A stretch of 64,000 bases of DNA from Methanobacteriota archaeon (GTDB lineage Archaea > Halobacteriota > Bog-38 > Methanoflorentales > Methanoflorentaceae), in NCBI GenBank assembly GCA_963701995.1, contig OY969693.1, positions 1,793,512 to 1,857,511 of the forward strand, in the 5' to 3' direction. Both the position numbers and the translations under genes were made by a program. A model generated the notes under the pieces. The model did not search any database, was not told the DNA's origin, and saw only the letters and a list, made by a program, of their open reading frames with translations. This document shows, piece by piece, positions 1,463 through 18,120 of this stretch; position 1 is the first letter of the stretch, and every line of letters starts with the position of its first letter.

Positions 1463-1728
1463 GTTGTTTTATCGCTAAAAAAAACGGGGTACAGGGCGGA
1501 TAAGTCTTGTCCACTTTTTCAACAAGCTTTGCGGACAGTAGCGACAGATTTGGCACTTTTGTACGACTCCGCAGGTGGCCGCCGAAAAACTTTTTCGGAA
1601 GTGCTCGACCAGCTCCGACGCGCATCATTCAGATTGCAACACCTTTTACCTCCGCCTGATGTAGGCGAAGACAACTACCCGTCAAAGGGTCAGGGCAGAA
1701 GTCATTTTCTAAGAATTGATGACACTCT

Positions 1729-2388
1729 CTATTTAGTCGGTCGCAAAGTCGAAGATTTCAGCACTGCTAACACATGCTTTCTATAATCGACTCCGTCCAT
1801 CAAGGTGATGATGTCATCTTCACCTGATTCTGACGGTTCGAGCGTTACTTTGTCGAACTTATGGTCGATGCCGCCCTCCGTTTCCACGCTGTGCCAATAA
1901 AAGCGAACTTGTTTAGGCACGTCCAGGGGTATGCCACGCTTTGCCTTCTCATAAGCAGCGATCCACGTCTGCATTATCGCTTGCCATTCAGCATTGAGCT
2001 TCTGGATCCCCGGTCGATACATAAAGTTCACGTTGAATGACTTGTATGTCAACTCCTCTACAGGGACACGTCCTGTATATGGGCCATATATAAAGGACGA
2101 ATGTTCTTTGTATGCCCGATCTGCCGCCTGCCCGATGTACGGTATCAGTCGCAACGATGGGTGATGAGCGATGCGAGGGCTATGCCGTACTGCCCAGACT
2201 GCCGCTGCCGTATACACCGCCTCCTCGCTCCATGATGCGGCGCGTCCTTTTTTTCCACTCCCCTTCCCGTGTTTGTAGCGTTCCGGTTCAGGGATGATAT
2301 GGAGAGTATATGCCCACCCTTTGAGCGTGTCTAGTGCAATATCCACACCTAGTTTATGAAGCCGGGCTTGAACTTCGTCAAGGTTCAT
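1729..2388 (-). CDS. hypothetical protein (island-border gene)
   Basis: 219-aa ORF with no recognisable motif. It is followed by a sharply AT-rich divergent promoter region. Confidence 0.4.
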   Translation of the reverse strand: MNLDEVQARLHKLGVDIALDTLKGWAYTLHIIPEPERYKHGKGSGKKGRAASWSEEAVYTAAAVWAVRHSPRIAHHPSLRLIPYIGQAADRAYKEHSSFIYGPYTGRVPVEELTYKSFNVNFMYRPGIQKLNAEWQAIMQTWIAAYEKAKRGIPLDVPKQVRFYWHSVETEGGIDHKFDKVTLEPSESGEDDIITLMDGVDYRKHVLAVLKSSTLRPTK

Positions 2389-2426
2389 TTGTTCATCTTA
2401 CCGTCGTCTTGCTATATGTACTTACT

Positions 2427-2476
2427 CTATTAGTTTTAATATAAGATTTCTACGGTTACCTATTAGTTTCAATATA
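2427..2476. repeat. 17-bp imperfect direct repeat (ctattagttt[t/c]aatata x2, ~33 bp apart) in AT-rich divergent intergenic region
   Basis: Read directly from the sequence. A nearby palindrome CATAGCgagtgGCTATG lies at ~2565-2585. Confidence 0.6.
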
Positions 2477-2618
2477 TTATAAAAAAATGCCAAATATAAC
2501 GCTTAAAATGCGAAAAATAAAACCATTAGAAAATGACTTAAAGGATAACAGCGTCATGATTTTTAGCCATAGCGAGTGGCTATGCATAAATTGACGTCTA
2601 AGCTCCGCTTTAGCAAAA

Positions 2619-3038
2619 GTGAAGGAGTATAAACACATGATTGAAAATTTAAAACCAATAGAACGAGAAGCGAATGACGAATCCCTCCCGATGCCTGAAT
2701 CAAAGGCAGTAATTGGAAACGAGCTAACGGAAGGAACGCACCGGTTCAGAATAACAGGTCGTACAATAGAGACCGATGTAAAGCTCAAGGGAAAAACGGG
2801 AACTTACACTAGATTCGAATTGCGTGCTAGGCCGATAGATATGGAACTCGACCAAGGGAAATCGCTTGGAATCTTCTACTCGTATAACTTAAAGACGTCG
2901 ACCGAATGCGGGCACTTCCTCAAAAATCAAGGCGTGCATATTGAGTATCTCGACAACGATCGTGTGAACCTCATAGGATTGATCGGGAGCAGCTTCAAGG
3001 CAGAAGCCGCCAAAAGGCAAGAAATAGAAAAAGCTTAG
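2619..3038 (+). CDS. hypothetical protein
   Basis: 139-aa ORF preceded by GAAGGAG RBS-like sequence; no recognisable domain. Confidence 0.4.
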   Translation: MKEYKHMIENLKPIEREANDESLPMPESKAVIGNELTEGTHRFRITGRTIETDVKLKGKTGTYTRFELRARPIDMELDQGKSLGIFYSYNLKTSTECGHFLKNQGVHIEYLDNDRVNLIGLIGSSFKAEAAKRQEIEKA

Positions 3039-3206
3039 CTCTTCGCAGCGCGAACCCATTTCTAAACCAAATGTATTAGTAACAATTGATGCAACTGAGC
3101 TTAGTCATTTGACTGCTATCAATATTGCAGACTTTTCCTTGTCAACGACTTATTTCCTCTAGAATCAAAGAACTGGTTTGCGTTAGATAAGTGCGAGGTG
3201 AGAAAT

Positions 3207-3368
3207 ATGCAACTCATAAAATGTGACAGGTGCAAAGAGATTACAGACTACCGAGGTTTTCTAACCGTTGAGACTACTCGATTTAAAAACTCGTTTGACC
3301 TTTGTAAAAAATGCGAAGATGAAATGAGGGAACTGGTAAGAAATGCTATAACAGTTGACGAGGGATAA
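3207..3368 (+). CDS. small zinc-ribbon protein (~53 aa; two CxxC pairs)
   Basis: Hand-translated: MQLIKCDRCKEITDYRGFLTVETTRFKNSFDLCKKCEDEMRELVRNAITVDEG. A GAGGTGA Shine-Dalgarno-like sequence lies 6 nt upstream. It is below the ORF-track size cutoff, and coordinates may be off by one. Confidence 0.4.
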   Translation: MQLIKCDRCKEITDYRGFLTVETTRFKNSFDLCKKCEDEMRELVRNAITVDEG

Positions 3369-3966
3369 GCCGAGTCGCAGCGATGATTGGACAGACATAG
3401 TCTCGGATTTCGCAGCGGTTATGCTAGCCGCCGCTACTACTATCTTAGTGATTGTTACGGGGCGGCTTGTAGCTACTGCCTCGCTAGAGCAGAACGGCTT
3501 GACGGATCGTATTTGCGGACGTTTGCCCTTGAGTTAAAAGAGCAGCTCGCCCAGACGCTTACTGCGTTTGTTATGTCGATTTTGACTCAGCCACGTAGGC
3601 GCCTAGATACGGAAAGTGCTGCGGAGCCACCGCTTCGTCAAATCATTGATGCGTTGCAGTAGGTGATGTGCACACATGACGCTGAAAAGCTGGCGATTTC
3701 TGTACTCGAAATCTACAAAGGCAGTTTAGCGAATGGCGACGAAAGTCTGTTTGACCTACCGTAGAATGTTAGTGAAGTCACATAGTCTCGTCAGCACAGT
3801 GAAAAAACCAAAAGCATTTTGGTGTATTCACGCAGCTTAAGCAACATATTGAACAAGAAGCGACCAGAAGGCGGGGTCAAAAAAGAGATCAGCCATAAGC
3901 GCGTCCTGCTTGGGTTATGGAAGAGCGAGATCGACAGCGGACGTCTTTGGAATAAATAACCAGACA

Positions 3967-5457
3967 ATGAGACAGGAAAAGATCGCCACGGAAGAATTAA
4001 CGCTTGACGAGATGGAGCAAGCGCTCTGGAAAGCCGCTGACATCCTCCGAGGCGCAGTCAGACCTGAGAGATACGGCAGCTATATGCTTCCGCTACTCTT
4101 CTTCAAACGACTATCTGATGTCTACGAGGAGGAGTATCAGGCGCTCCTTGAAAGGTTCAAGGACGAGGAAATCGCCAAGAGCAAGTTTCACCGCTTTACA
4201 ATCCCTGGGGGGTGTTTGTGGGAGGATATCCGTGTGGTGGCTCAAAACGTGGGTCAGAAACTCAATGATACGCTTGCCCAAATCGCAAAAATTAATTCAT
4301 CGCTTGAAGGTGTGATCAACCGCGCAGATTTCAACAAGCAGGACGAGCTCCCGCAAGATCGGCTCATAAGGCTTATCGAGCACTTCAGCCCTCTTCATCT
4401 TGGCAACAACGATGTCTCACCCGACATACTTGGTACGGTCTACGAGTATCTCCTCAAGAAGTTTAATGAGGTGGCTCCGCAACGGGCTGGAGAGTTTTAT
4501 ACGCCGAGAGAGGTTGTCCGGACGATGGTGGAGATCCTTGATCCTCAAGAGGGATATGAGATTTACGATCCGTGTTGCGGAAGTGGGGGGATGCTCATTG
4601 AGTCGCACTATCACCTTGCGCGAGAGGGTAAAGATCCGAAGAAACTTTTCTTATATGGCCAGGAGATCAATGGCGAAACGTGGACTATTGCGATGATGAA
4701 CGTCATGCTCCACGATCTTGAGGCAGAGCTGGATCAAGGTGATAGTTTTGCTGATCCAAGGTTCCTGGATGGATCTTCCTTGAAGCAGTTTGATCTAGTG
4801 ATCGCCAATCCAATGTGGAACCAGGATGGCTACCGATCGATTATGGAAAGCGATCAGTTTGGTCGTTTCACGTATGGCATAGCATCGAATAGTTCTGCCG
4901 ATTGGGGTTGGATACAGCATATGCTCGCCAGCTTAAAGACTACAGGAAGAATGGGCATCGTTCTTGACCAAGGAGCGCTGTTTCGAGGCGGCGCTGAAGG
5001 GAAGATAAGAAAACAGATCATTGAGAAGGACTTAGTGGAGTGCGTGGTAGCTTTGCCTGAGAAGTTGTTTTACAATACCGGAGCTCCAGGATGTTTGCTT
5101 TTCCTAAACAAAGAGAGAAAAAAGGACAGAAGATCGAAAATCCTTTTCATCTATGCTGCCAAAGGGTTCGAGAAGCGCAAGAGCATGAACCAACTGAGAG
5201 ATGAAGACGTTCAGGGGATTACAGATGCTTACAAGCATTTCAAAGACGTTGAAGGTTACTGCAAATTGGCCGACTTGGACACTGTTAGAGCTAACGACTA
5301 CAACTTGGCCGTGAATCGATATGCAGGAGTGTTAGATGATGAAGAGCTGGTGGACGTGGCGAAAATCTGGCAAGAGCTGAGGAGGCTGGAGAGTGAAAGA
5401 CAACTAATTGATGGGAGAGTGAAGAATTTCTTGGAGGAATTGGGCTATGAGAAGTAG
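3967..5457 (+). CDS. hsdM: Type I restriction-modification system, M subunit (N6-adenine DNA methyltransferase)
   Basis: Typical HsdM N-terminus (MRQEKIATEELTLDEMEQALWKAADILRG) and the motif I region DPCCGSGGML. The catalytic motif is the divergent NPMW in place of NPPF/Y. The C-terminal helical region and an 11-nt overlap with hsdS fit the family. The track ORF begins at 3910; the ATG at 3967 is preferred. Confidence 0.85.
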   Translation: MRQEKIATEELTLDEMEQALWKAADILRGAVRPERYGSYMLPLLFFKRLSDVYEEEYQALLERFKDEEIAKSKFHRFTIPGGCLWEDIRVVAQNVGQKLNDTLAQIAKINSSLEGVINRADFNKQDELPQDRLIRLIEHFSPLHLGNNDVSPDILGTVYEYLLKKFNEVAPQRAGEFYTPREVVRTMVEILDPQEGYEIYDPCCGSGGMLIESHYHLAREGKDPKKLFLYGQEINGETWTIAMMNVMLHDLEAELDQGDSFADPRFLDGSSLKQFDLVIANPMWNQDGYRSIMESDQFGRFTYGIASNSSADWGWIQHMLASLKTTGRMGIVLDQGALFRGGAEGKIRKQIIEKDLVECVVALPEKLFYNTGAPGCLLFLNKERKKDRRSKILFIYAAKGFEKRKSMNQLRDEDVQGITDAYKHFKDVEGYCKLADLDTVRANDYNLAVNRYAGVLDDEELVDVAKIWQELRRLESERQLIDGRVKNFLEELGYEK

Positions 5458-6688
5458 GTTGAAAGAAGCTTCACTCGATGATGTCTGTTTGTTGGTCACT
5501 GATGGTACTCATGATACGCCTAAGCGAGTAAAAGACGGCTTTCCGTTAATTAAGGCTAAGGAAATCGTCGGCCGAAAAATCGATTTTGAGACTTGCGATC
5601 GAATTTCGGAAAAGGAACACCTGCGGGTTATAGCAAGGTCGAAACCTGAATATGGAGATACTCTATTTGCACACATAGGCGCTTCTCTTGGGGAAGCTGC
5701 CTTCGTAAATACAAACCGTTCTTTTAGCATCAAAAACATCGCTTTGTTTAAACCAAACCCAGCAATAATAAATCAACGCTATCTTTTTTATTTGATAACA
5801 AGTCCCGCCTTCCAAGAGCTAGCCAAACGGACCAAAACAGGTTCAGCGCAACCATTTCTCAGTCTTGGAAAGCTGAGAGCTCATCGAATAACTTATCACC
5901 AGGTTATGGATGAGCAACGGAAGATCGCGGCGATTCTCTCCGAAGTTGATAATTCTATTGAAAAATCCGACGAGATTATCACAAAGACGCAGCAGCTCCG
6001 AACAGGTCTCATGCAGCAGCTGTTGACCAAGGGGATCGGACATACGAGGTTTAAGCAAACGGAACTCGGAGAGATTCCAGAAGAATGGGAGGTAGTTTAT
6101 TTCAGACAAATTATCACTTCGTACAGAAATGGTATTTATAAACCATCTAGTTTCTATGGCAGAGGCATTCCGAGTGTCAGAATGTACAACATTGACGATG
6201 GAAAAGTCAACAAAGCTAAAGCTCCTTTGCTTGATGTAACAAAACCAGAAGCGAAAAGTTATGGACTCCTTCCAGGCGATATTCTGATAAACAGAGTTAA
6301 TAGCATAGATCAGGTCGGCAAAGCAGGAATCGTGCAAGATGACCTTGGAGATGCTATCTTTGAAAGCAAAAACATCAGGGTTAGAGTGAGCCCTGATAGA
6401 TGCGATCCGCATTATCTCGCATATTTTTTGTGTACGTCTCTGTATCTTAAGCAGATCCGGTCGAGAATCAAACCGGCAGTCTCTCAGGCAACAATCAATC
6501 AAGATGATTTAGACCAAATCCAGATCTGTATGCCCCCCTTATCAGAACAGCAAGAAATCGCCTCTATTCTATCGACTCTGGATGAAAAAATTGAAACAGA
6601 AATGCAAAGGAAAGAAGAAGTCGAACATCTCAAGAAAGGCCTCGTAAGTGATCTTCTAACTGGAAAAGTGAGAGTTAAGGTGACATAA
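5447..6688 (+). CDS. hsdS: Type I restriction-modification system, S (specificity) subunit
   Basis: 413 aa with two target-recognition-domain halves separated by conserved coiled-coil spacers (…LRTGLMQQLLTKG… / …KKGLVSDLLTGKVRV). Positioned between hsdM and hsdR. Confidence 0.8.
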   Translation: MRSRLKEASLDDVCLLVTDGTHDTPKRVKDGFPLIKAKEIVGRKIDFETCDRISEKEHLRVIARSKPEYGDTLFAHIGASLGEAAFVNTNRSFSIKNIALFKPNPAIINQRYLFYLITSPAFQELAKRTKTGSAQPFLSLGKLRAHRITYHQVMDEQRKIAAILSEVDNSIEKSDEIITKTQQLRTGLMQQLLTKGIGHTRFKQTELGEIPEEWEVVYFRQIITSYRNGIYKPSSFYGRGIPSVRMYNIDDGKVNKAKAPLLDVTKPEAKSYGLLPGDILINRVNSIDQVGKAGIVQDDLGDAIFESKNIRVRVSPDRCDPHYLAYFLCTSLYLKQIRSRIKPAVSQATINQDDLDQIQICMPPLSEQQEIASILSTLDEKIETEMQRKEEVEHLKKGLVSDLLTGKVRVKVT

Positions 6689-9556
6689 GTGCCTTACACT
6701 GAAGTCGACGTCGTTGAAAAGCCAATCATCGACTGGCTTCAGCAGTTGGGTTGGACGTATGTCCCCGCCGATAAACTGAATCGAAATACTGAAGAGCCCT
6801 TTGACCTAGCCGTCCTGCGTGAAACGATCCAGCGACTCAATCCAGCGACCATTCTCACAGCTGAAGACGTCGATACGGTCATCAATCATCTCAGACAGAT
6901 CTCTAATGATATCAACGGCAACCGGCACTTTTCAGAATGGGTTAAGGGAGACCGAAGCATCGTACTGCGCCGAGGCGAGAAGGCCCAGGTTATCCGTTTA
7001 GTTAACCCTAGTATTGAGGAGAACATCTTCACTGCGACAAATCAGTTCACGTTCTTCGGGTACGAGCACGTTCGGTTCGATATCGTGCTGATGATAAACG
7101 GCATTCCACTCACACTAATAGAAGCCAAAAAGCCAACCCGCGAAACTTTAGACTATCACGAAGCCATAACACAAATATTACGATACCACAGGGATGCCCC
7201 CCAGTTTTTCAAACATTTAGCCCTTGCTTGTGCGACTGACGGGGTTAATTTCCGCTATGACTGGATAGCCCCCGACAAGTTTTTTGAGTGGAAGGATCGG
7301 GATAAACGATTCACAGACCCCCTTGAAGCATCCGTCAATGCCTTTTTCGAGCGTGGTTTCTTTTTAGACTTCATTAACAACTTCGTCGTTTTTGAAACTG
7401 AGCGCGAGCAGGTACGCAAGAAGATCGCAATGTACCAGCAAGTAAGTGCTGCTAATAAAATTGTCTCGCGCATCATTGAGGGGAAAATAAAGAGCGGTCT
7501 TATATGGCACACACAAGGATCCGGTAAGTCGCTCACTATGCTCTTTGCTGCGTGGAAGCTCAAAAAGGCCCCACAACTGTTAAATCCCACGATTTTGCTC
7601 CTCGTCGATCGGATAGACTTAGAGCGGCAACTGTCTGGGGCGTTTGCAAACGTCGACTTTCCCTATACTACAAAAGCAAAGAGCTCCCAGGATCTTATCG
7701 AGAAACTCTCAAAAGATAGTCGAGAAGTCATCATCACCACTGTACAGAAGTTTAGGAGAGAGCTAAAAGAGGCGCTAAGCGAACGTGAAAACATTATAAT
7801 CTTCGTTGACGAGGCGCATCGATCACAATACGGAAAGTTTGCGATGCGGGTGCGACAGGCTTTCCCAAACGCCTTTGTGTTTGGGTTTACCGGCACGCCC
7901 ATCGAGAAAGGAGCGGCGGGGAGGAGCACTTTTCGGACGTTCTGCCCCCAAGGCGAGACGTACCTCGACAAGTATGGTATACGCCAATCGATTGAAGATG
8001 GCGCGACAATTCGTCTCCTCTATCAATCACGGTTAGTGAATTACCACATCCCACGCGAGGAGCTCGACAGGGAGTTCCTTTCGATCACACTGGGCCTCTC
8101 TGAGAAGAGGCAGGAAGAGGTGCTCGATAAGAGCGCTACCATCCGGACGGCTTTAAAGGCACAGCATCGAATTGAAGCCATTGCACAAGACGTCGCCGAA
8201 CATTATACTACTCACATTGCTCCCAACGGATTCAAAGCACAGCTTGTCGCGGTCGACCGAGAAGCGTGCGCGATGTACAAGGAAGCGCTCGACCGACATT
8301 TGCCGGTCGAAGAATCTGTCGTGATCTACACCGCAAACCAAAACGACAGCGAACTTTTGCGACGCTATCACCTCGATAAAGACGAACAAATGACGATCAC
8401 AGGAGGCAGCTTCCAGAAGCAAGGTGAGAATCCCAAGATACTGATTGTCACCGACATGCTGCTCACCGGCTTTGATGCACCAATCGAGCAGGTGATGTAC
8501 TTAGACAAACCGATGCGCGACCATAAGCTCCTCCAAGCGATTGCACGAACAAACCGACCATATCCTGGCAAGGCAGCAGGGATCATCGTGGATTATGTCG
8601 GCATCTTCGATAATCTCGTAAAGGCTCTCAACTTTCAAGAGGAGGATATAGAAGGGGTTGCCTTCGACTATGAAGTGTTAAAAGAAGAGTTCAGTGCCAT
8701 TATTGCCTCTGCTATCAAGCCATTCAGCGAGATCGTGCGAGATGGGTCGCGGGAATCACTTTTTAAGGCGTTCTCCGTCCTTGATAATGAAAAGCGATAC
8801 AAAGAATTCAAAAAGGGCCTTCAACAGCTTAAGCGGCGATACGAGACCATTGCGCCCGACCCGTTTCTTTTGCAATATGACGATGACTATACGTGGCTCA
8901 TAGAAGTGAACGAAGCTCATAACAAGTTTCGCCACCGCGAGGATCCCGACCTCGCGGAATATCAAGAAAAAACGAAGCAGCTCATCAGGGAGAAGCTTCT
9001 AGTCAATGCGCTGGAAACGCAACTCCCCTTATTTGAAATAGACAGTGAGTATCTCAAGAAACTTGATGGACATCATTTCACCAAGCGGCAGAAAGTGATG
9101 GAAATAACCGAAGCAGTACGCCGTCACATCAGCATCAACGTCGAAACGAACCCCATCTATGAAACGCTGAGTCACCGGCTGGAACGAATTTTGAAGATCG
9201 AGGATATACCAAAACTGCTTGAGGCGATGGAACTTCTTGTGGGAAACATCGTTGAGACAGAACGACGTGCCAAGGAACTCGGCCTGTCAAAAGAGGAGTA
9301 CGCCCTTTTAAACGTGGCCAAGAAGTACGTGCATAACGAAAGCGATGCCGTGCTCATCGCCTTCACTAAGCGCGTTACTGACACTATAAAACCGCGGCTT
9401 TTCCCTGGTTGGTGGCGGAAGGTGAAGGTTGCAACAGAGATAGAAAAGACGTTGTTTGATGCGTGCTTCGAGGAGTTTAGAGGACAGCTGAGCATGAAAG
9501 ACCTCACATCGTTCTGTGAAGAGCTGATGGACTTTGTCGTGAAGTACAATCAGTAG
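6689..9556 (+). CDS. hsdR: Type I restriction enzyme R subunit (HsdR; PD-(D/E)xK nuclease plus SF2 helicase)
   Basis: N-terminal D...LIEAKKP nuclease motif, Walker A TQGSGKSLTM, DEAH box VDEAHRSQ and 955 aa length. GTG start immediately follows the hsdS stop. Confidence 0.85.
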   Translation: MPYTEVDVVEKPIIDWLQQLGWTYVPADKLNRNTEEPFDLAVLRETIQRLNPATILTAEDVDTVINHLRQISNDINGNRHFSEWVKGDRSIVLRRGEKAQVIRLVNPSIEENIFTATNQFTFFGYEHVRFDIVLMINGIPLTLIEAKKPTRETLDYHEAITQILRYHRDAPQFFKHLALACATDGVNFRYDWIAPDKFFEWKDRDKRFTDPLEASVNAFFERGFFLDFINNFVVFETEREQVRKKIAMYQQVSAANKIVSRIIEGKIKSGLIWHTQGSGKSLTMLFAAWKLKKAPQLLNPTILLLVDRIDLERQLSGAFANVDFPYTTKAKSSQDLIEKLSKDSREVIITTVQKFRRELKEALSERENIIIFVDEAHRSQYGKFAMRVRQAFPNAFVFGFTGTPIEKGAAGRSTFRTFCPQGETYLDKYGIRQSIEDGATIRLLYQSRLVNYHIPREELDREFLSITLGLSEKRQEEVLDKSATIRTALKAQHRIEAIAQDVAEHYTTHIAPNGFKAQLVAVDREACAMYKEALDRHLPVEESVVIYTANQNDSELLRRYHLDKDEQMTITGGSFQKQGENPKILIVTDMLLTGFDAPIEQVMYLDKPMRDHKLLQAIARTNRPYPGKAAGIIVDYVGIFDNLVKALNFQEEDIEGVAFDYEVLKEEFSAIIASAIKPFSEIVRDGSRESLFKAFSVLDNEKRYKEFKKGLQQLKRRYETIAPDPFLLQYDDDYTWLIEVNEAHNKFRHREDPDLAEYQEKTKQLIREKLLVNALETQLPLFEIDSEYLKKLDGHHFTKRQKVMEITEAVRRHISINVETNPIYETLSHRLERILKIEDIPKLLEAMELLVGNIVETERRAKELGLSKEEYALLNVAKKYVHNESDAVLIAFTKRVTDTIKPRLFPGWWRKVKVATEIEKTLFDACFEEFRGQLSMKDLTSFCEELMDFVVKYNQ

Positions 9557-9566
9557 GCGCAACAGC

Positions 9567-10286
9567 ATGGGCTCTATTCAAATCGATGGTCGTCAAATCA
9601 ACTATCGCGTAAAAGCGGGAAAGAGTGCGAAATACACTTATCTTAAGTTCACGCCTGATCTTGAGCTCGATGTCGTACTTCCTCACGAATCTGATATAAA
9701 CGTTGAAGCGCTCCTTGAGAAAAAACGGGCGTGGATTGCACGTAAATACGCGGAGCTTTCAAACAGGAAATGCGTTTTTGATGGCACGTCAGTTATGTAC
9801 AAAGGACGTTACTACGACCTCCATGTGGTGCCCCCAGAAAATGGCACGAACGTTGAGGTTCAGAAGGATAAGATCATCATCTCCACGAAAGACGTGGGGG
9901 ATCCATTATCGTCGCTGAAAGAATGGATGACAGCAGCAACTACGGAGCTGTTAACCCGCGAACTGCCGCGTTACGCACACCGTTTCAAAATCACCCTTGG
10001 AGCTGTAGTAGTGAGAAATATTAAGCGCTGGGGGTACTGCTCGAAAACGGGCGCCCTTGTTTTCACGTGGCAGCTGATCGCGTTGCCTGATCGTCTAGCG
10101 GAATACGTGATGCTCCATGAGTTAGCTCATCTATCTGAGTTCAATCATTCGAGGAGGTTTTGGACAAAGTTAGCGTCTATGTGTCCGGACTTTAAGGAGC
10201 GGCAACAAGAGCTTAATCAAGTTTGCACCAGCGCATCAGCGGATTTAGACACATCAGACCTGATAAGCCCTGATAGCGTAATGTAA
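9567..10286 (+). CDS. DUF45/YgjP-like (WLM/SprT-type) zinc metallopeptidase, HExxH
   Basis: HELAHL zincin motif near the C-terminus and 239 aa length. This family is recurrently encoded directly downstream of hsdR. Confidence 0.65.
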   Translation: MGSIQIDGRQINYRVKAGKSAKYTYLKFTPDLELDVVLPHESDINVEALLEKKRAWIARKYAELSNRKCVFDGTSVMYKGRYYDLHVVPPENGTNVEVQKDKIIISTKDVGDPLSSLKEWMTAATTELLTRELPRYAHRFKITLGAVVVRNIKRWGYCSKTGALVFTWQLIALPDRLAEYVMLHELAHLSEFNHSRRFWTKLASMCPDFKERQQELNQVCTSASADLDTSDLISPDSVM

Positions 10287-10792
10287 GAGCACAAGGAAAT
10301 GAGGGGGAGAACTAGTGATTATTCTGTTTCCCCGCCTTGTCAGCATTAACCGATCTTTTGCTATTCATCAAAGAAGGTGGTCAATGTCCTTCATAGCAGC
10401 CTCCTCGCCTCTCTGCCTATGACTGCTCCAGTTTGCGGCTGTATCTCTAAAAACAAAGGATATTGCGACGTAATCTTCCCGACTGCTATGCACTGCTGCT
10501 TCACGAGGTGCTGTAATGCACTGATTTCTGATCGATCAAGCACGAAGGAGCCAATCTTTAGTGACCTTAACCAGAGATGCCGTAGCGACTCAACCGTCGC
10601 CGCGCACGAAAGGCTCGCCCCCACAGATGGAGTTGACAAGAGCGCTAATTCGAGCATCGTTAGAATTTAGCGCATCGTAATAATCTAGGATTGTCTTCAA
10701 AGAGTATCGGTTGTCGGTCAAATCATTCACTTTGTTGGCGACCATTGAGCGTAACAAGTCTTGGCGGAGCTTTTTGCCTTGCTGTTGCTGTT

Positions 10793-13363
10793 TCACATCA
10801 TTGAGACAGTCGTGGATGAGTCGTGGGTCTCCGACAAGTCTTCAGGTTGATCGGCGGCCTCTGAAGAGCTTCCGTTGTTAGCAACTTCGGAGGCGCTTCG
10901 CTCCGCTTCGGATCGTGTTTCCGAAATAGAATGAAGCGCGTTTTGGGCATCTGTTTCAGGTTGGGAAGGAGCTGTGGGTCTGTTCCATTTGTCGGTCGCG
11001 GCTGTTTCGGAACTTCGGTCGGGTGCGATGGAAGGAGATCCAATGGTGGGTATCTCGTATTCCTCCGAAGTACCGAAAGTAGTGTTAGTGTTATGTACAA
11101 TATGCCCGTTAACCCCCCCTAACCTGGAATCTAACCCCTCGCCGCCCTTCTCGCTATTTCGGAAGTCATCTCCGAAACAATCCGAAACAGTCCGAAGTTG
11201 CTGGTCTTCTTCCCAATATACAATCGATTCATAACTTTTGACCAGCGTCCACTCGGCTGGCAATGCGTAATGATTGCGCCCCCACCGATCACCTGTTTCG
11301 GGGTCAACATCGCTCTTTGAATAGAACTTCAATTCGGGTATCTTTTCAAGCATGCCCCTGTTATCGGACTTATACTGGCCGTGAATGAGTTCATAGATGT
11401 AACTGTTGCTCAGCCTGGTCTCATCCATGATCCTCCATAGATCACACGGTGAGTTGTCTCGTATAACCGATGCAACTAGTCTCTCTTTCTCATTCAACTT
11501 CGTTACCTGCTGAACGGCGACGGTCTTAAACAAGCCGAGTGCGTTATCGAAATCCTGCTTAATGGCTATGAGTGCGCCATCTTTATCAGTGCACCGCGCA
11601 GAGTAATTCAGGACGCAATACGCCTTGATGAAGTCGAGGAATATGGGAAAGTTGCGCCTATTTCGCACGTTCGTGAATTTTATGTTGTTAATAAATGGAA
11701 TTGTGACCGCATGACTAGTTTGATTGAGGTGCAAGAAAGCCCCCCTCAACAGTTCGACTTCATCATCCGCATAGAATTCTGAAAGGCCTGATTCAGCAAG
11801 CTTCCGCTGGTGCTGCTCGACCCTCTTGTCCTGGTCAGGCGACTCATCGACGTTCATCTCGACCTGCCGATTAAGGAGCTGAATCGTCGATTTGGTACTC
11901 ACACTGGTGAGCCAAAAAGCAACTCGCGGTGGCAATGACAGCGTTAGAGGGTTGCGCTTCCCGTCTAGCGTGAGATGTTCAGTGGGTGAATCCCAGTTGG
12001 TCATTGCTGCACGGACGGTCTGTTCGACATCGGGAGCCAAATTCACGTCATCACTAAATATCACCATTTTAGGCCGCAACTTGTCATCGTAGAACAGGGC
12101 TTTTGAGCTAAACGACGCAGCCAAGTACATTGTTGTGGGCATCAGATGGAGCACGGTTTTCGTGCTGTGCGTCTTTCCCATTCCGCTCTCCCCGCTCAAC
12201 TTTGGCTGCAAGCCGTTCGTGTTTATAACGGACAGGCTCGCCACTGATAGCATCAGCAATTCAGCCACTGGTTCATCGCCAACGTGGAATTTTTGCACGT
12301 TTCGCCTGAACAGTTCGATGAGCTTGTTGCCCTGGAAGAGGCTTTGAACCTCCTCGCTGCACTCTTCATTCAGCAAAGGCTCAACGGCGGGTCGCGGTGT
12401 TCCCGCAGGATACGTGCAACAGCTCTTCGCAATCATCGTCAGCTCTGAATCGTCGAGAGGAGTCTCGCAATCGTACTCGTTGATTCCCCTAAGAACTAGA
12501 AAGAGGCCGTCGGCTTGAAGTGCGTGAACTTCACGATAGTAAGAACCAACCCTAAAGAGTGTGACGTTTCGGCTTCCTACTGGTATTGGCTTCGTGTAAT
12601 CAAGAGCACCCTTGGTAACTTGGTTATCTAGGGTATGCGTGTCTACCAAGCACGCGGCATCATCGGCGCCTATCGCCTTCTGTACTCCGTGTAATGATAC
12701 GATATACTGCAACGCAGCTTCAGATAGCTTCGTTAACTTAATTGCGTCGCTTGGTGTGTCAGCATCACAAAACTCATAGCGTGCTCCGTCGGGATGAATC
12801 GATCCAGGGCCAACGACATAGCCTCCGGCGCCTTTCACGTCAATATGATCGGCGAGACGGTTGTAACTGTTTCGGATATCAAAACCGCAAGGATCGCAGT
12901 ATAGTTGATATCCTCCTCCAGTTTTCACCAACGTTCCGACTTCAAATGTGCCTAGTTTATCCTGCACCTCTTTGATCTTCGCAGCTATTTCGTCAGGGTT
13001 TATTCCGTCTAAGTCAATAACGAAGAAATGTTTTCCGGTGACAATCCCGTAATTAGATTCAGGATATCTCCGAGCCCATTCGAGGATTACGTCCTCGTCA
13101 GTCGAAGCTTTAGCTTGCCATCCTGTAAAGAGGGGCTCTTTGCTCTTTTGCTTGAGAGGAAAAACCTTGAATCCTTGACTTGCCATAAAGAAAGCGCAGG
13201 ACCAAGTGTGGCTTGCTACAAAATGTCTACGGCCCCTCGCCGGCGACGCATGAGCTTTGTAACCATTGTCGCCAAGTTCAACTGAGTGGATCGCTTCTTC
13301 GGTTTTCTTTAAAAAAGTGTTGCTTTCCTCTAGGGTTTCTTCTCTTTTTCTCGTATGCTGCAA
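10793..13363 (-). CDS. replication protein: bifunctional primase-polymerase (PrimPol) N-domain fused to D5/P4-type SF3-like helicase; disordered acidic/Ser-rich C-terminal tail
   Basis: Prim-Pol motifs FVIDLDG...DVKGAGGYVVGPGSIHPDGARYEF and the Walker A GESGMGKTHSTKT. The tail (…SEAERSASEVANNGSSSEAADQPEDLSE…) is low-complexity. The architecture matches plasmid/provirus Rep proteins such as pRN1 ORF904-like ones. The true start may be internal (MASQGFKVFPL…). Confidence 0.75.
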   Translation of the reverse strand: MQHTRKREETLEESNTFLKKTEEAIHSVELGDNGYKAHASPARGRRHFVASHTWSCAFFMASQGFKVFPLKQKSKEPLFTGWQAKASTDEDVILEWARRYPESNYGIVTGKHFFVIDLDGINPDEIAAKIKEVQDKLGTFEVGTLVKTGGGYQLYCDPCGFDIRNSYNRLADHIDVKGAGGYVVGPGSIHPDGARYEFCDADTPSDAIKLTKLSEAALQYIVSLHGVQKAIGADDAACLVDTHTLDNQVTKGALDYTKPIPVGSRNVTLFRVGSYYREVHALQADGLFLVLRGINEYDCETPLDDSELTMIAKSCCTYPAGTPRPAVEPLLNEECSEEVQSLFQGNKLIELFRRNVQKFHVGDEPVAELLMLSVASLSVINTNGLQPKLSGESGMGKTHSTKTVLHLMPTTMYLAASFSSKALFYDDKLRPKMVIFSDDVNLAPDVEQTVRAAMTNWDSPTEHLTLDGKRNPLTLSLPPRVAFWLTSVSTKSTIQLLNRQVEMNVDESPDQDKRVEQHQRKLAESGLSEFYADDEVELLRGAFLHLNQTSHAVTIPFINNIKFTNVRNRRNFPIFLDFIKAYCVLNYSARCTDKDGALIAIKQDFDNALGLFKTVAVQQVTKLNEKERLVASVIRDNSPCDLWRIMDETRLSNSYIYELIHGQYKSDNRGMLEKIPELKFYSKSDVDPETGDRWGRNHYALPAEWTLVKSYESIVYWEEDQQLRTVSDCFGDDFRNSEKGGEGLDSRLGGVNGHIVHNTNTTFGTSEEYEIPTIGSPSIAPDRSSETAATDKWNRPTAPSQPETDAQNALHSISETRSEAERSASEVANNGSSSEAADQPEDLSETHDSSTTVSMM

Positions 13364-13567
13364 GATCTCACGGCCAGATGATGTATCTGGCTATGCGGGA
13401 ATATGTGAGAACGAAGTCTAATAATAAGAAACGCTTGACGCGTTATAAAGGAAACCGTTGGAATCGACATGCTTTTCTATTCTTTGTAATAAGTATAGCT
13501 CGCACGGCTATTTCTTTTTGACAGCGCAAAAATAGCCTCTTCTTAACGCTACATTGCAAACTAGAAA

Positions 13568-14320
13568 ATGAATTCGGCAATGCTGATTTTAGGCTGCATT
13601 ACGCCTGAGGAAATATCAGTGGCCGCCGATCTGGCCATACTTCTAGTAGCTTTTATTAGCGTGGTTACGTTCTTGTTATGGAGATTACTCAACATACGAA
13701 GCAGCAAGGGGGTTCTCGCACTAGCGATTTCCCCTCCTAGCGTTTCGTCTCCGTTAATCACATTCGGACACAGAGATCCCGCTGCCGCCACACCGGACGT
13801 TGCCAACATTGAGCAACCGATTTTGCCCGTCTTAGTCCTTATACAATATTCTTTGCTAAACGCCGACATTTTTCCAGAAATACTCGGAGATGCTTCTCTG
13901 CAAATCAAACACCTTGCAACTGGCAATAAATATCAGCTGAGTCCCCGAATGACTTCCAAAGCTGATATGCCGACTGAGAAAACCAATCGAGAAACAAGAC
14001 TAGTGGCAACCGCACCTTTTAGAGAACTTTTGCTTAAGCCTCGAACAGATGAGCAAATTTGGTTATTCTTTGTCCCCATTGAGGAACGGGATTTGTCACT
14101 TGGTAACGTAGCCTCTGGCGATTATGAGGCAATATTGAAGCTTAAGAAACGAAAATTTTGGTGGGTTGAAGAGGCTGTGGTCTTGAAGTTCACGGTCGAA
14201 GAAGCATTTGCTGGATTTATGCAGAGCGTCACTATCATACTAAAGATTCCCGAAGCAGGTCTTTCAGTCATTTGCAACAAAAAATGGTGGCAATTTTGGA
14301 AAAGAAAGCTACCGCTTTAG
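13568..14320 (+). CDS. hypothetical protein with N-terminal transmembrane helix
   Basis: 250-aa ORF with a hydrophobic N-terminus (AADLAILLVAFISVVTFLLWRLL). It is the only long ORF in this segment; there is no homology-based support. Confidence 0.3.
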   Translation: MNSAMLILGCITPEEISVAADLAILLVAFISVVTFLLWRLLNIRSSKGVLALAISPPSVSSPLITFGHRDPAAATPDVANIEQPILPVLVLIQYSLLNADIFPEILGDASLQIKHLATGNKYQLSPRMTSKADMPTEKTNRETRLVATAPFRELLLKPRTDEQIWLFFVPIEERDLSLGNVASGDYEAILKLKKRKFWWVEEAVVLKFTVEEAFAGFMQSVTIILKIPEAGLSVICNKKWWQFWKRKLPL

Positions 14321-14478
14321 CAAATGAAGTAAATGTTTCTTTGTTAGTATCTAGCACGTTTTAGCGACGAAGATATTGCGATACTGCGAGATCGAAGCTC
14401 ATGCGGCATCGCTGAAAAGTTCAGCCCGACTTAATCCATTTGCTAAATAGAAGACTTACCCTAGATCAGCCTTTTTGA

Positions 14479-14570
14479 GCAAATAAACGAGCTAAAAGCA
14501 AATAAGCAACGATTGAACGTAAATTTGATTCGCAAAAACAAGCAAGTAACGACAGTTAGCAAAAAATTGA
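14479..14570. repeat. iteron-like A-rich repeats GCAAA(T/A)AA (about 5 copies, 10-34 bp spacing)
   Basis: Copies at ~14479, 14498, 14532, 14542 (partial) and 14559, within a 600-bp ORF-free region of the putative element. Confidence 0.4.
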
Positions 14571-14924
14571 CGAATTTTTGGACATCAACCGTCAAAAAAT
14601 CCGTTTTTTCGTTGCAGCTTCGTTTTGATGATTAGGCAGGCCGCACTGGGACGTGACGGGGATAGGCATATATTTCGTAGAAAACAGTTTTTCATTATGT
14701 ATGTGGGGGGGCGCGTAGCAATTTTTGGGCAGGCCCCTGAACCGCGAGTAATGAAGTTATGCGTCTAATGCTTGTGTCTTGAACTTGGAGCTGTGTCCCA
14801 CCCCAAGTGGTTTTGAGGGTCGTTGTTCGCTTCACGTAAAACTCGCGAATCTTTAGAGCGCGAAGATCCTTGTCCGACAGCAGCTTACAAAGCGGCGTGC
14901 GCTCGACAGCTTAATGTCTCAAAA

Positions 14925-15386
14925 TTAGCCATTACACTTCTCATCTATAGCTGTCTGATCAGCTTCCAATTCCCTCAATTGCCCTTCCAAACGTTCGATT
15001 TCTGAAGTAACATTGGCGAGAGATCTAGAGATAGTAACCATTTTCGCCTTCCTTTGCTTAACGAGTGAATTGACAAAGACGCGGCGTGATTCTCCGGCTA
15101 ATTGCTTTATCTCTTCTTCAACCTCAGTGCATTCTCGGTCAAATTCCGCTAAACGTTGTTTGGCTTGTCGGATAGCATCTGCTGCGTCGTCCAAAGCGCG
15201 ATTAATTATGTCTGCAGCTTCTTCTTCTGAAGTATCTGCGTTCACTTGCAGATTTATGAAGCTTGCTGCTTCATTCACCATTCTCGTGAGTTCTTTTTCT
15301 ACGTTGTAAGATTTGCGCTGCGTTAGATCCGTATAACGTCCAAGCCAGTAGGTCAAACGCTCGTTTTCGTGTGTTGGATCCTTCAT
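14925..15386 (-). CDS. coiled-coil protein (hypothetical)
   Basis: 153 aa, strongly heptad-like and charged (…EEEIKQLAGESRR…IERLEGQLRELEADQTAIDEK). It lies upstream of, and co-oriented with, the AbiJ-like gene. Confidence 0.45.
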   Translation of the reverse strand: MKDPTHENERLTYWLGRYTDLTQRKSYNVEKELTRMVNEAASFINLQVNADTSEEEAADIINRALDDAADAIRQAKQRLAEFDRECTEVEEEIKQLAGESRRVFVNSLVKQRKAKMVTISRSLANVTSEIERLEGQLRELEADQTAIDEKCNG

Positions 15387-15541
15387 TTTCGTTCCTTTGT
15401 TCTGCGAGTTGACCTTTGAGAAGGGCAGTGATTAGTCCAATAGATGCAAGATGTAGCCACAGAGAATTATCAAATGAAAATACGAGTCATCAACGTTTGA
15501 TCTCGGGAGCGATATCTTGGTAGCCTTCCTATGGATTTAAT

Positions 15542-16438
15542 TCATTTTTCAGCGCCATTGGCTAGCACGCCGGCCTTGACTGCTTTTGGGAACAGGTAAT
15601 TCACAAAAGCGGAGCAAGAGACCAACATAAACTGTGCATCTTCTAGGTTTAAGTTTGGTTCATCGAGCAATGCATGGCGTATGCCATTTGCGTCACTGGT
15701 GTACCCATACAAGCTGCTGAAGGCCTGACGCAGGGCGCCATGTAGTTTTATTTTGCCAGCTCGTTCTATTTTGTTCAATGCGTCCCCTAGAGTTGCTTTT
15801 TCTCCTGCAATTTTTACACAGATTGACTCGACAGCACTAATTGACTCTTTGATTGAATTTCGATAGACGAGATCGCCGAGTCTCTCTCGGTCGGACAATA
15901 GTTTTAAGGCGTCTCGCAAATGTATGTGAGCCCCTCTAAGCGCCGGAAGGGTCGTAGTAGTGTTCAAAGCCTCTTCGACTGCGCCACGTTCTTCAGTAGA
16001 TGCAATAGGTGCAATGACTCCTGAGACGAAACGGTAGCCTGAACGCTCTTCTTCTAGGAGCTTGTTGGACTCTTCCATGAAACGAGCACTAATGTCTGCG
16101 TTTGGGTACTCGTTTGCGATGAATTCTATGAAATCGTAGACCTGGAACCATTTGAATTTAGAGAATAAACCCCTCAGCTGGAGACAATACACAGGCCAAA
16201 CGTCGACGATGAGGCTCCACATAGGTTGCTTGAAGAATTCATCCTGCAATCTTCGTGAAAACGATTTCGTAGAGTCTTTATTGTCTTCCTGCGCGGCATC
16301 TTGCCAAAAATACTTGTCTAGAGCGTTCCAAATGCGATTTCGCAAATCATCATCAATATCGTCGATCTGAACAAACGTTTTTACCGGTGTTTGCCCTTGC
16401 CTTTGGGAGAATGGAAGTTTGGGGTCTTCAGGGCTCAT
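15542..16438 (-). CDS. AbiJ-like abortive-infection protein (AbiJ N-terminal domain plus C-terminal HEPN-like domain)
   Basis: The N-terminus PFSQRQGQTPVKTFVQIDDIDDDLRNRIWNALDKYFW resembles, as recalled from memory, the AbiJ_NTD4 family. The C-terminal region carries an Rx4H motif (RGAHIH) as in HEPN RNases. Confidence 0.5.
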   Translation of the reverse strand: MSPEDPKLPFSQRQGQTPVKTFVQIDDIDDDLRNRIWNALDKYFWQDAAQEDNKDSTKSFSRRLQDEFFKQPMWSLIVDVWPVYCLQLRGLFSKFKWFQVYDFIEFIANEYPNADISARFMEESNKLLEEERSGYRFVSGVIAPIASTEERGAVEEALNTTTTLPALRGAHIHLRDALKLLSDRERLGDLVYRNSIKESISAVESICVKIAGEKATLGDALNKIERAGKIKLHGALRQAFSSLYGYTSDANGIRHALLDEPNLNLEDAQFMLVSCSAFVNYLFPKAVKAGVLANGAEK

Positions 16439-16439
16439 T

Positions 16440-16643
16440 TTACTCTCGCATACAAATAACTGAACTAGACTGTTTGTTTTGATGTCGGATAAACTTTTTC
16501 AGGAGGACAGCACAGATGAGAACGTGCCCCCAGGCACTCAGATAAATATCATAAGCGTACTCAGGCAGCGGATGCTTGTAAAACAGCCAATCAATGCCAG
16601 AAACTCCGTGAGTCATAATGTAGTTCTTGTTTGACTGATCCAC
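16440..16643 (-). pseudogene. integrase C-terminal fragment (remnant of a second tyrosine recombinase)
   Basis: The fragment NYIMTHGVSGIDWLFYKHPLPEYAYDIYLSAWG aligns with the C-terminus of the adjacent intact integrase (YVLTHGVSGVDWKHYKHPLPEHVYDIYMKYWG). A shared 17-nt identical DNA stretch (ggcagcggatgcttgta) confirms a diverged duplicate. Confidence 0.6.
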
Positions 16644-16725
16644 TTCCGTAAATGGGTCTGCTGCTCACAAAGTGTTTTGAGATCTGGAAAATGACCCGAC
16701 ATCAAGATCTATTCTAGTGACGCAG

Positions 16726-18018
16726 TTAGATTGTCAAGTCGACATTTCCCCAGTATTTCATGTAGATGTCATACACATGCTCGGGCAGCGGATGCTTGTA
16801 GTGCTTCCAATCAACTCCGCTAACTCCGTGTGTTAAAACATACGCTCGGTTTGACTGATCCCATTGGATAACGTCGCCATGCTGCTCCGCAAATTTTCGC
16901 AAATCTCCAAGCACAAAATGCCCTTCAAAGTGCGACATCGGGATTTTCTGACGCTTCATCCACATTTGGAAGCTATGATATCCAAACGCGCTTTCCTCGT
17001 TCTTACAGTCGCAAAGCACTGCTTGCATAGCTTCGACTACCTGCGAATGAAGGGGCACGTAGTGTTGCATCCGAATCTTATCTTGCGACGGGTCGACGGT
17101 GAGTACAGGTTTTTCGGACTGCAACGCTTCCCGAAACTGTCCGACAGTCAGCTTCGCAATCGTCGATACACTTCGCTGCCCTGTGAGCGCACCGAAAATA
17201 ACGAATGCGTTATACTGAGCTGCCCTTTCGGCGCCAATGTCTCCACGTTCTTCGGCGTGCTTGATGTAACGGAGAACGTTTTCGATATCATCCTTGGTGA
17301 CAATTCGCTCAGTTACGTTTTTGCGTTCTTTGACCGTTTTCGGACGCTCTAAGTAGGGAGAGAAACTCTGGTATCGTGGTTTAGAATGTGTCGTGGCGAG
17401 AAACTTTAGGAACGACGTTGCGAAGCCGAGTACTTTAGAGTGTGAATCGGCTGACTCGTACTTGTTAAGCACGTTTTGTCTGAATTCCTTCAGGCTATGC
17501 GGCGAAACCTCTCCCTTTGTAGACTTCCATAACTCTATTGAAGCTCGCTCTATCCAATCCTGCGATTTTTTAGCGAGCCGTTCTTTCCTGTGAGCTGTAA
17601 AGCCATTAAGGTCAGATTTTGAAAAACTGAGTTGTAGCTCGTCAGATGTGGCCTGTTCGCGAATTTCTTGCGTTTCAGCGGGGTTGTAAATAGGTTTTTC
17701 GTAAGTCTCTAGAATATCTTTAACGGCTTCTATTGTTTCAACGTCAACCGTCCTTATTTTTTGAGCTTTGTGCCACGCGCTTCGCACACTCTCGTCCAAA
17801 TGAGCATAGTCCTCGTCCTCGTCTGCTATCAGCTCTTCTGTGCTAAATTCGAGGCCTTCGTCGAGCGACCCGTCAGGGAGTCTGGTGTGGACGATAATTC
17901 CGCCACCGTAGTCGACGATGACAGTTTCTGGCGGTTCTTTTTCGTTTTCGTCATTTTCAGCAGAAGTTGGCAACTCATGAGAAGTTGGCAACTTTTCTTC
18001 GTCATCATCCGCCACCAT
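16726..18018 (-). CDS. site-specific integrase (tyrosine recombinase family)
   Basis: C-terminal box II-like H..LR.F...HG…AYVLTHG and an upstream …TGQRS… arginine box. It sits immediately adjacent to the tRNA-Val 3' end. The track ORF extends to 18099 by reading through the tRNA, so the start was trimmed to MVADDDEE. Confidence 0.7.
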   Translation of the reverse strand: MVADDDEEKLPTSHELPTSAENDENEKEPPETVIVDYGGGIIVHTRLPDGSLDEGLEFSTEELIADEDEDYAHLDESVRSAWHKAQKIRTVDVETIEAVKDILETYEKPIYNPAETQEIREQATSDELQLSFSKSDLNGFTAHRKERLAKKSQDWIERASIELWKSTKGEVSPHSLKEFRQNVLNKYESADSHSKVLGFATSFLKFLATTHSKPRYQSFSPYLERPKTVKERKNVTERIVTKDDIENVLRYIKHAEERGDIGAERAAQYNAFVIFGALTGQRSVSTIAKLTVGQFREALQSEKPVLTVDPSQDKIRMQHYVPLHSQVVEAMQAVLCDCKNEESAFGYHSFQMWMKRQKIPMSHFEGHFVLGDLRKFAEQHGDVIQWDQSNRAYVLTHGVSGVDWKHYKHPLPEHVYDIYMKYWGNVDLTI

Positions 18019-18046
18019 TTTAGCCTCTAAATCAGAAAAAGAACGA

Positions 18047-18120
18047 TGGGCTCGGCCGGATTTGAACCGGCGACCTCCGCCGTGTGAAGGCGACGTCATA
18101 ACCGCCTAGACCACGAGCCC
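18047..18120 (-). tRNA. tRNA-Val (anticodon CAC)
   Basis: Cloverleaf folded by hand. Acceptor GGGCTCG/CGAGCCC, T-arm GCCGG-TTCAAAT-CCGGC, anticodon stem TCGCC/GGCGG with loop TTCACAC, discriminator A. CCA is not encoded. Confidence 0.8.

Follow-up and report, generated by a model that had tools for sequence, protein, structure and literature searches.

Within the 64,000-nucleotide stretch of archaeal DNA considered here (the window; contig OY969693.1, positions 1,793,512 to 1,857,511), the segment from ~1607 to 18098 probably represents one integrated plasmid-like mobile element of ~16.4 kb that occupies the 3′ half of a tRNA-Val(CAC) gene. The host is an uncultured peat/fen archaeon of the Halobacteriota/Methanomicrobia lineage. 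In its present form, the element is probably a mosaic, immobilised, integrated plasmid with defence cargo; its type is ordinary, and the family to which it belongs is poorly catalogued. The evidence comes from the anatomy of the segment, from the folds and families of its proteins, from the attachment (att) site as seen in relatives, from the locus being variable, and from a junction at 1672. The inventory given by an earlier, sequence-only reading (tRNA, integrase, replication protein (Rep), restriction–modification (RM) genes, a DUF45 gene, an AbiJ-like gene and orphan open reading frames (ORFs)) is borne out by ORF, Pfam and PADLOC data.

The integration target is intact: tRNA-Val(CAC) is recognised at 18047–18120 on the minus strand by ARAGORN and by Rfam (RF00005, 63.5 bits), and neither program finds another RNA gene in the 64 kb. 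Its 3′ half forms the core of the left att site (attL; 18036–18098, minus strand), which runs from about tRNA nucleotide 23/32 to the 3′ end and includes ~11 nt downstream. In relatives, designated here by L numbers, the att site comprises ~54 nt, from the tRNA anticodon loop to just beyond the tRNA 3′ end. L018 carries a 7.7 kb unit between the tRNA and a 54-nt direct repeat that is 96% identical and consists of tRNA nucleotides 32–74 plus 11 nt. Intact pairs of att repeats are present in both L018 and L002, where the direct repeats map to window positions 18036–18089 and 18046–18095, respectively, while homology with L091 begins at window position 18098. Further copies of the same att site are found in L002, L098, L099 and L091.

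As had been claimed from the sequence alone, an integrase gene adjoins the tRNA 3′ end, with its ORF starting just 3′ of the intact tRNA. The gene (16726–18021, minus strand) encodes a divergent tyrosine recombinase of 431 amino acids, classical and non-split, as judged from its homologs, its PHROG match and its predicted fold. A longer ORF (16726–18099; 457 aa) can be read from an ATG inside the tRNA. The start of the integrase is the ATG at 18021, after AGAGGCTAAA, an AGG-rich ribosome-binding site, and nearly all homologs start at that same site (M-V/I-A-D-D...). A database search yielded 687 homologs, almost all from peat/fen metagenomes and from metagenome-assembled genomes (MAGs) labelled ‘Halobacteriota archaeon’; many are named only ‘hypothetical protein’, and a precomputed integrase Pfam domain is present in none of the 687. 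The window protein itself has no significant match in Pfam, NCBIfam or the sequences of the PDB, with PF00589 (Phage_integrase) reaching 14.6 bits (E 0.029), where 27.1 bits is the gathering threshold. The protein is recognised by PHROG 216 (‘integrase’), with E 3.7e-8. An AlphaFold (AF2) model based on 36 homologs has its confident part at residues ~130–360 (predicted local distance difference test, pLDDT, 82–96), and tyrosine recombinases make up all of its top Foldseek matches in the PDB (Tn1549 Int, lambda Int, Cre and XerH; probability 1.0, E 7.5e-5 to 1e-2). R283, K315, R375, H398 and Y408 are invariant in the 36 sequences and have canonical spacing (10 residues between H398 and Y408), their roles being assigned by motif spacing, not by structural superposition; the first position of the HxxR motif is a nearly invariant Gly in this family (G372-D-L-R375). 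By PHROG 216 and the predicted fold, the protein is a tyrosine recombinase; the original label stands, with the correction that Pfam and NCBIfam do not see the family.

Members of this family adjoin tRNA-Val(CAC) or tRNA-Val(UAC) in L001, L010, L017 and L180. Paralog P0115 from the same genome, 56% identical, lies beside tRNA-Val(UAC) (L001), and L180 holds a UAC-type att site. Inside the 5′ end of the window gene, tandem palindromes (two copies of AGTTGcCAACTT, 18 nt apart; repeat D10) occupy 17957–17992 on the minus strand. Paired palindromes of the form AGTTGnnCAACT or AGTTG-N1-3-CAACT, with copies 18–21 nt apart, lie ~55 nt 3′ of the att core and recur at the same distance from att in L010 (~10104–10139), L002 (~10022–10055), L001 (7904–7945), L017 and L180. 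The pair is kept among integrases that are only 50–77% identical, in the poorly conserved acidic 5′ end of the gene; L091 has lost one copy. The palindromes may be arm-type integrase sites or an operator; alternatively, what is conserved may be a peptide repeat (KLPTS/KLHNS).

A remnant of a second integrase, comprising approximately the last 45 codons, follows the intact gene (16515–16661, minus strand). It is detected by tblastn with the L010 and L017 integrases (50% identity) and is also found in L091; a 114-nt direct repeat links 16528–16641 and 16748–16861 (70%). Integrase C-terminus remnants also lie directly downstream of the intact gene in L001 (9438–9623 and 11227–11397), L178 (4858–5447) and L180 (1525–1677). 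Such remnants at several loci suggest that tandem elements have repeatedly been replaced or fused at their integrase ends.

The second backbone gene encodes Rep (10793–13363, minus strand), an ORF of 856 aa whose database copy starts at ~13186 (797 aa). According to Pfam, tblastn and a structural model, the protein combines a Prim-Pol domain (Pfam, E 1.4e-31), a PriCT_1 domain and a predicted MCM-like AAA+ module, an arrangement assigned to the pME2001 Rep type; its homologs carry PF09250, PF08708 and PF27228 in precomputed annotation. The N-terminal Prim-Pol domain is 31–35% identical to its counterparts in pORA1-/pRN-type plasmids of Sulfolobales, and residues 285–667 resemble the Rep of Methanothermobacter pME2001 with 24% identity (both by tblastn), whereas phage matches are confined to the PrimPol domain. 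A search of PDB sequences with Rep returned nothing. When the model of residues 330–720 (pLDDT 91) is compared with the PDB, all 50 of the top 50 matches are MCM AAA+/winged-helix subunits (E 5e-10 to 3e-8, TM ~0.5–0.56). The proposed combination of PrimPol and superfamily 3 (SF3) helicase thus holds for its first half; since the model matches are all MCM, and the Pfam family is PF27228 (pME2001 Rep), the SF3 label for the ATPase half is unsupported and was rejected. PrimPol–MCM fusions are known on mobile elements. The comparison with plasmid databases that had been suggested for Rep gives small archaeal plasmids (pRN/pORA1 and pME2001) as the best matches.

Downstream of rep follows a small conserved ORF of 88 aa (10391–10657, minus strand), containing a ~130-nt block common to L178 and L180. 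This block was also considered as a non-coding element, which was rejected because its substitutions fall at third codon positions, indicating that it is coding. Both L178 and L180 have homologs of Rep (71% identical) together with homologs of the integrase (53% and 66%), arranged and oriented as in the window, and an equivalent of the small ORF follows rep; these two loci define the backbone as att-int-...-rep-orfX. In the window, att, int, rep and the small ORF all lie on the minus strand, with two variable cargo slots: one between int and rep, holding an AbiJ_NTD4/PDC-S32 gene and a coiled-coil gene, and one distal to rep, holding hsdMSR-ygjP and orphan ORFs. In L180, an MT-A70–NurA–HerA module is inserted between rep and the small ORF, and the ORF of the 10391–10657 type forms the C-terminal end of a HerA-like (DUF87) gene (14145–15605). 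The integrase and Rep families are patchy in distribution, confined to Halobacteriota MAGs and peat metagenomes, and they co-occur on L178, L180, L095 and L091.

The variability of the locus becomes apparent from related genomes (n=10, L010–L020) that were retrieved by a genome scan with the methyltransferase (MTase) neighbouring the tRNA. In all ten archaeal genomes the right flank, POR-alpha/POR-beta/MTase/tRNA-Val(CAC), is syntenic with 78–94% amino-acid identity, and in each of them the DNA beyond the tRNA is different. After the tRNA, L010 has an integrase that is 77% identical and other small ORFs, L017 an integrase that is 51% identical, and L012 and L014 terminase-containing DNA with no homolog of any island gene; four related contigs end at or within the tRNA. 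The terminase DNA in these sister genomes means that different mobile elements use the same tRNA-Val hot spot. Identical content at this tRNA in all relatives, without att repeats, is what the sequence-only reading had named as speaking against an integrated element; what is found is differing content and att repeats. In L012 and L014, the terminase large-subunit genes beside the tRNA occupy 3338–4261 and 7823–9733, respectively, and the region 958–6713 of L014 contains a NurA-HerA-Mre11-Rad50-like cluster. The methyltransferase itself, an orphan N4/N6 DNA methyltransferase (18229–19107, plus strand; PADLOC MTase_II 2.8e-92), adjoins the tRNA in conserved synteny in 10/10 of the genomes; its next-closest relatives are in Chloroflexota MAGs (~60% identity). 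It is part of the host flank and lies outside the island. Exact-protein look-ups with this methyltransferase, DUF1801 and the integrase (P0001) returned no record.

Part of the element also occurs elsewhere. The JGI contigs L091/L092 carry att, int, the int remnant, the AbiJ gene and the coiled-coil gene, and give alignments of 1583 nt (95.3% identical) and 2090 nt (93.8%) with window positions 18098–14501. There is also an insertion of 1 kb, the homology ends at ~14471–14501, and the PrimPol of L091 is only 61% identical and truncated. The att site in these contigs is preceded by the end remnant of another element, not by the tRNA 5′ half. The different context of the int–AbiJ module may be read as a sign that the element has moved or undergone recombination.

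The far end of the element had been left open by the sequence-only reading, between position 1462 and the ORF at 1729–2388. A candidate degenerate right att site (attR) is now located at ~1607–1672 (minus strand), where the element meets an older cassette, and is visible only through comparison with related contigs; the suggested search for a direct repeat of the tRNA 3′ half yields this candidate and no intact copy in the window. The candidate consists of a hairpin that resembles an anticodon arm, followed by GGCGGAGGT, an insertion of 22 nt and a T-arm that has decayed. Two contigs found by a metagenome scan with DUF1801, L098 and L099, are 94–97% identical to window positions 2–1670 and 301–1670, respectively. 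When they are aligned, the identity between window and contigs is 95% right of 1672 and ~35% left of it, with the step at the 5′ edge of the att-like sequence. The L098 site homologous to 1607–1672 keeps the conserved upstream arm and matches an attR profile with E 1.8e-6; the corresponding L099 site matches with E 0.005, and the profile finds no other att remnant within the island (1672–18036). By this alignment-based argument, a boundary at 1672 is favoured with moderate confidence.

Several observations weigh against this picture of one element. No intact second att site (tRNA 3′ half) was found in the 64 kb by exact search, three-mismatch search, repeat finder, blastn-short or Smith–Waterman alignment. 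Taken alone, the window site at 1607–1672 has an E of 2.1 (nhmmer), below several chance matches, and a local alignment gives it a score of 29.5, which several other places exceed. Relatives have a small conserved ORF ahead of attR, of which no homolog was found in the window. Neither a truly empty tRNA-Val site nor a circular form was seen in relatives, and the contrast in GC content with the bulk of the window (~0.51) is modest. The RM operon is found in none of the related loci examined; its separate arrival is possible.

The last point is shared with an alternative in which a defence island was built piecemeal at a recombination hot spot, with only int, and perhaps the AbiJ-like gene, belonging to a small integrative element, and Rep, the RM genes and the orphan ORFs stemming from separate insertions or from fusions of tandem elements. 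The integrase remnant right behind the intact gene, the end of L091 homology at ~14471 together with the truncated, divergent L091 PrimPol, and the orientation of the RM operon, convergent with the backbone, all favour such a history, and exchange of modules between archaeal elements integrated in tandem has been documented (PMC8371274). However, the attR profile reveals no internal att remnant between 1672 and 18036, and integrase, Rep and small ORF recur in the same order in L178 and L180; moreover, the alternative overlaps much with the mosaic history that the single-element explanation already contains. Piecemeal assembly is accordingly considered unlikely. A provirus, meaning that a virus and not a plasmid-like element has been integrated, is far less probable still. 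In its favour, PrimPol genes occur commonly in viruses, the function of several ORFs cannot be recognised, and sister genomes L012 and L014 have a terminase large-subunit gene at the same tRNA-Val, but capsid, portal, terminase and other virion genes were not detected in 1–18120 with Pfam and PHROGs, and the best Rep matches are small archaeal plasmids. Since virion genes are missing from that region and neither Int nor Rep has relatives in IMG/VR, ‘integrated plasmid’ fits better than ‘provirus’, which narrows the earlier proposal of an integrated plasmid or provirus doubling as a defence island and otherwise supports it.

A further alternative concerns the integrase gene, namely a ‘suicidal’ integrase of the SSV type, split upon integration, so that the window would hold Int(C) only, with Int(N) at the far end of the element. 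The frame is indeed open from within the tRNA into int (the 457-aa ORF at 16726–18099), some database gene calls begin inside the tRNA (P0004 and P0069), and one small ORF, located upstream of attR in L002, continues across att in frame with int. In copy 1 of L002 and in L018, by contrast, the upstream small ORF crosses att in another frame, and such an upstream ORF has no homolog in the window. Beyond the att core, the gene also has a conserved ATG/GTG start of its own with a purine-rich ribosome-binding site, and a complete two-domain recombinase fold follows from there. SSV-type integrases have a KxxR motif (PMC8371274), against GDLR in the present family. With inconsistent frames and a conserved start codon of its own, the split model was rejected; its probability is close to nil. 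The single integrated plasmid remains the preferred reading.

The cargo distal to rep is dominated by a plus-strand operon, hsdM-hsdS-hsdR-ygjP (3910–10286; Pfam, and PADLOC REase_I 3e-129), which is tightly packed, with genes overlapping or abutting. It encodes HsdM (3910–5457; N6_Mtase 2.8e-107, HsdM_N), HsdS (5447–6688; Methylase_S in two stretches, corresponding to two specificity domains), HsdR (6689–9556; HSDR_N nuclease domain 2.3e-31, T1R_D3, and SWI2_SNF2/ResIII superfamily 2 (SF2) motor domains, with SWI2_SNF2 at 1e-70) and, directly after HsdR, a YgjP/DUF45 protein (9567–10286; 1.7e-42). The Type I RM operon is therefore complete, as had been claimed, and the DUF45 metallopeptidase was likewise correctly named. 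In the slot between int and rep, a 298-aa protein (15542–16438, minus strand) matches AbiJ_NTD4 (Pfam 1.8e-33) and, over its full length, PADLOC PDC-S32 (5.3e-97), which is a candidate system only. The description of this gene as AbiJ-like HEPN is upheld in its first part; in the C-terminal 139 aa HEPN was not detected, nor any Pfam match at E<=1, and inspection by eye shows ‘GIRHALLD’ and no Rx4-6H motif. A linked protein of 153 aa (14925–15386, minus strand) has weak coiled-coil matches. Both are conserved in L091, where the two genes also adjoin (96% identity for the AbiJ-like protein and 97% for the coiled-coil protein). Cargo in related elements is often defence-like, with MmeI in L095 and HD-CE/HATPase plus MT-A70+NurA+HerA in L180.

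The remaining genes are orphans. A 250-aa ORF (13568–14320, plus strand), divergent from rep, has no family match in Pfam or PHROGs. The last gene of the element, a 219-aa ORF (1729–2388, minus strand), belongs to a rare family associated with mobile elements, with only 19 homologs in a database search; one of these, in L095, adjoins a PF27228 Rep, an MmeI RM gene and an integrase homolog, and an N-terminal homolog adjoins rep in L180. Two further orphan ORFs (2619–3038 and 3387–3662, both plus strand) lie within an AT-rich stretch at 2400–3900. This stretch had been noted before, and its composition is confirmed (GC 0.40–0.475 over 2401–3900); across 2–18 kb the GC content is 0.44–0.49, with the lowest value, 0.40, at 2.4–3.0 kb. 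It reaches 0.59–0.60 directly right of the tRNA and is ~0.50–0.55 in the remaining window. A repeat finder detects short repeats (D2, D14) in the divergent intergenic region 2388–2619. A 259-nt block at 3457–3715, just upstream of hsdM and overlapping the ORF at 3387–3662, is 80% identical to L098 6244–6502, where its orientation relative to the DUF1801 segment is opposite.

Left of the candidate attR lies what appears to be an older integrase-less cassette (1–1462, minus strand; Pfam and translation), comprising the N-terminus of an alpha/beta-hydrolase cut by the window edge (1–351, from translation), SnoaL (495–926) and DUF1801 (1034–1462), the latter two identified by Pfam and all three on the minus strand. 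In L098 and L099, the DUF1801–SnoaL block is located inside arrays of att copies in tRNA orientation, each after a small ORF (L099 8674–8721 and 14265–14321; L098 14209–14262 and 16867–16916). The arrays also carry HAD and alpha/beta hydrolases, ABC transporter genes, a molybdopterin oxidoreductase and a second SnoaL, and they contain no integrase. Given these att-bounded arrays, the seemingly ‘housekeeping’ left flank of the window is older inserted material; the GC content of the island is lower than that of its flanks, in the direction that the sequence-only reading had noted for the AT-rich segment, and the left-flank genes are older inserted cassettes, not host backbone. By homology with these contigs, the array rather likely continues beyond window position 1, and the island probably extends ~3 kb or more past that point. 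A 61-nt segment upstream of DUF1801 (window 1563–1621), with the palindrome CCGAAAAAGTTTTTCGG, recurs in inverted orientation in L099 (4213–4273, 85% identity) and may be a shared regulatory or terminator hairpin.

A conserved small ORF of ~85–135 aa is always found just upstream of attR-type att copies, and reads into att (L018 1972–2376; L002 9680–9920 and 12755–13072; L098 13991–14137 and 16603–16839; L099 8447–8635, 13975–14235 and 16121–16288). It may encode a directionality or regulatory factor. An AbrB/SpoVT-like identity, proposed by eye, was dropped for want of Pfam or NCBIfam support. Integrase-less, att-bounded units are seen at L018 2060–9871, L098 9650–16916 and L099 8674–14321, and their cargo includes ABC transporters, an AsnC regulator, SnoaL, DUF1801, hydrolases and a molybdopterin oxidoreductase. 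These units are the decayed products of tandem integration or else cassettes that are mobilised in trans. In the latter case, the tRNA-Val locus would be an integron-like capture platform, at which cassettes, each ending in the conserved small ORF and the 54-nt att, are inserted and excised in trans by the GDLR integrase of the head element, and are more than decayed tandem leftovers. The 7.7 kb unit of L018, with its 96%-identical att repeats and no integrase, and the two to three serial units without int in L098 and L099 would suit such a platform, but int remnants are visible in the window, and loss of the integrase after integration is known in archaea (PMC8371274). Ordinary decay of tandem integrations explains the cassette pattern equally well, and the integron-like platform is regarded as rather improbable.

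The history we infer for the integrated plasmid, including recombination chemistry, replication function, defence activity and loss of mobility, would be as follows. A circular plasmid-like form, with attP between the small distal ORF and int, would have recombined with the ~54-nt attB in tRNA-Val by standard tyrosine-recombinase chemistry, with Y408 as the nucleophile, and integration would have regenerated the tRNA. The element would now replicate passively with the chromosome, its RM and Abi-like genes protecting the host. Later fusion or replacement of modules may have left as traces the int C-terminal remnant (16515–16661) and the differences in cargo from L091, and the element would head an older array of integrase-less, att-bounded cassettes. 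Because the distal att is degenerate, autonomous excision is probably unlikely. Tandem integration, integrase loss and module exchange have all been described for archaeal elements (PMC8371274), and the element therefore falls within a known kind.

Current concepts of archaeal mobile elements are thus unchanged. What is gained is an integrase family with at least 687 members, specific for tRNA-Val and overlooked by standard annotation, in uncultured peat/fen archaea of a methanogen-related lineage, together with a definition of the att site and backbone (int, PrimPol-(MCM-like) Rep and small ORF) of the family's elements. Such elements carry Type I RM, AbiJ-like, MmeI and NurA/HerA-type cargo into these genomes. 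Several kb of seemingly ‘housekeeping’ accessory genes beside the island are att-bounded insertions, which matters for pangenome and island-boundary calls in these MAGs.

Among known systems, archaeal tRNA-integrated plasmids are the closest in overall design. Elements of the pT26-2/TKV type in Thermococcales and Methanococcales, and cryptic integrated elements of Thaumarchaeota, likewise have a tyrosine integrase at a tRNA, with the 3′ part of the tRNA as att, a plasmid-type Rep and variable cargo including RM and defence genes, and they share tandem integration, integrase loss and module shuffling (PMC8371274, PMC6972569, PMC6563490). The present element differs in its host, an uncultured peat Halobacteriota, and in its integrase, which falls outside Pfam and NCBIfam and has GDLR instead of HxxR, KxxR or YxxR; in contrast to the integrases of pT26-2, pTN3 and SSV, it is of the classical, non-split kind. 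Integrases of the pNOB8 type, with the consensus R...YxxR...Y (PMC8371274), also have an unsplit gene, with YxxR where GxxR is found here. The Rep protein shares its N-terminal Prim-Pol domain with the pRN1-family Rep (ORF904, PrimPol plus SF3 helicase), from which it departs in its MCM-like ATPase, and its central and C-terminal part, at 24% identity, with the Rep of Methanothermobacter pME2001 (PF27228). Among the cargo genes, complete hsdM, hsdS and hsdR with ygjP directly after them correspond to Type I RM operons with linked YgjP/DUF45, and the AbiJ_NTD4 domain is that of AbiJ abortive-infection genes, the C-terminal half differing in that no HEPN domain or Rx4-6H motif is detected. For the older array alone, integron cassette arrays offer an analogy, in that serial integrase-less accessory units with the same end site lie downstream of one integrase-bearing unit; here, however, a tRNA-derived ~54-nt att after a small ORF takes the place of the attC hairpin, and no Pc promoter logic is evident.

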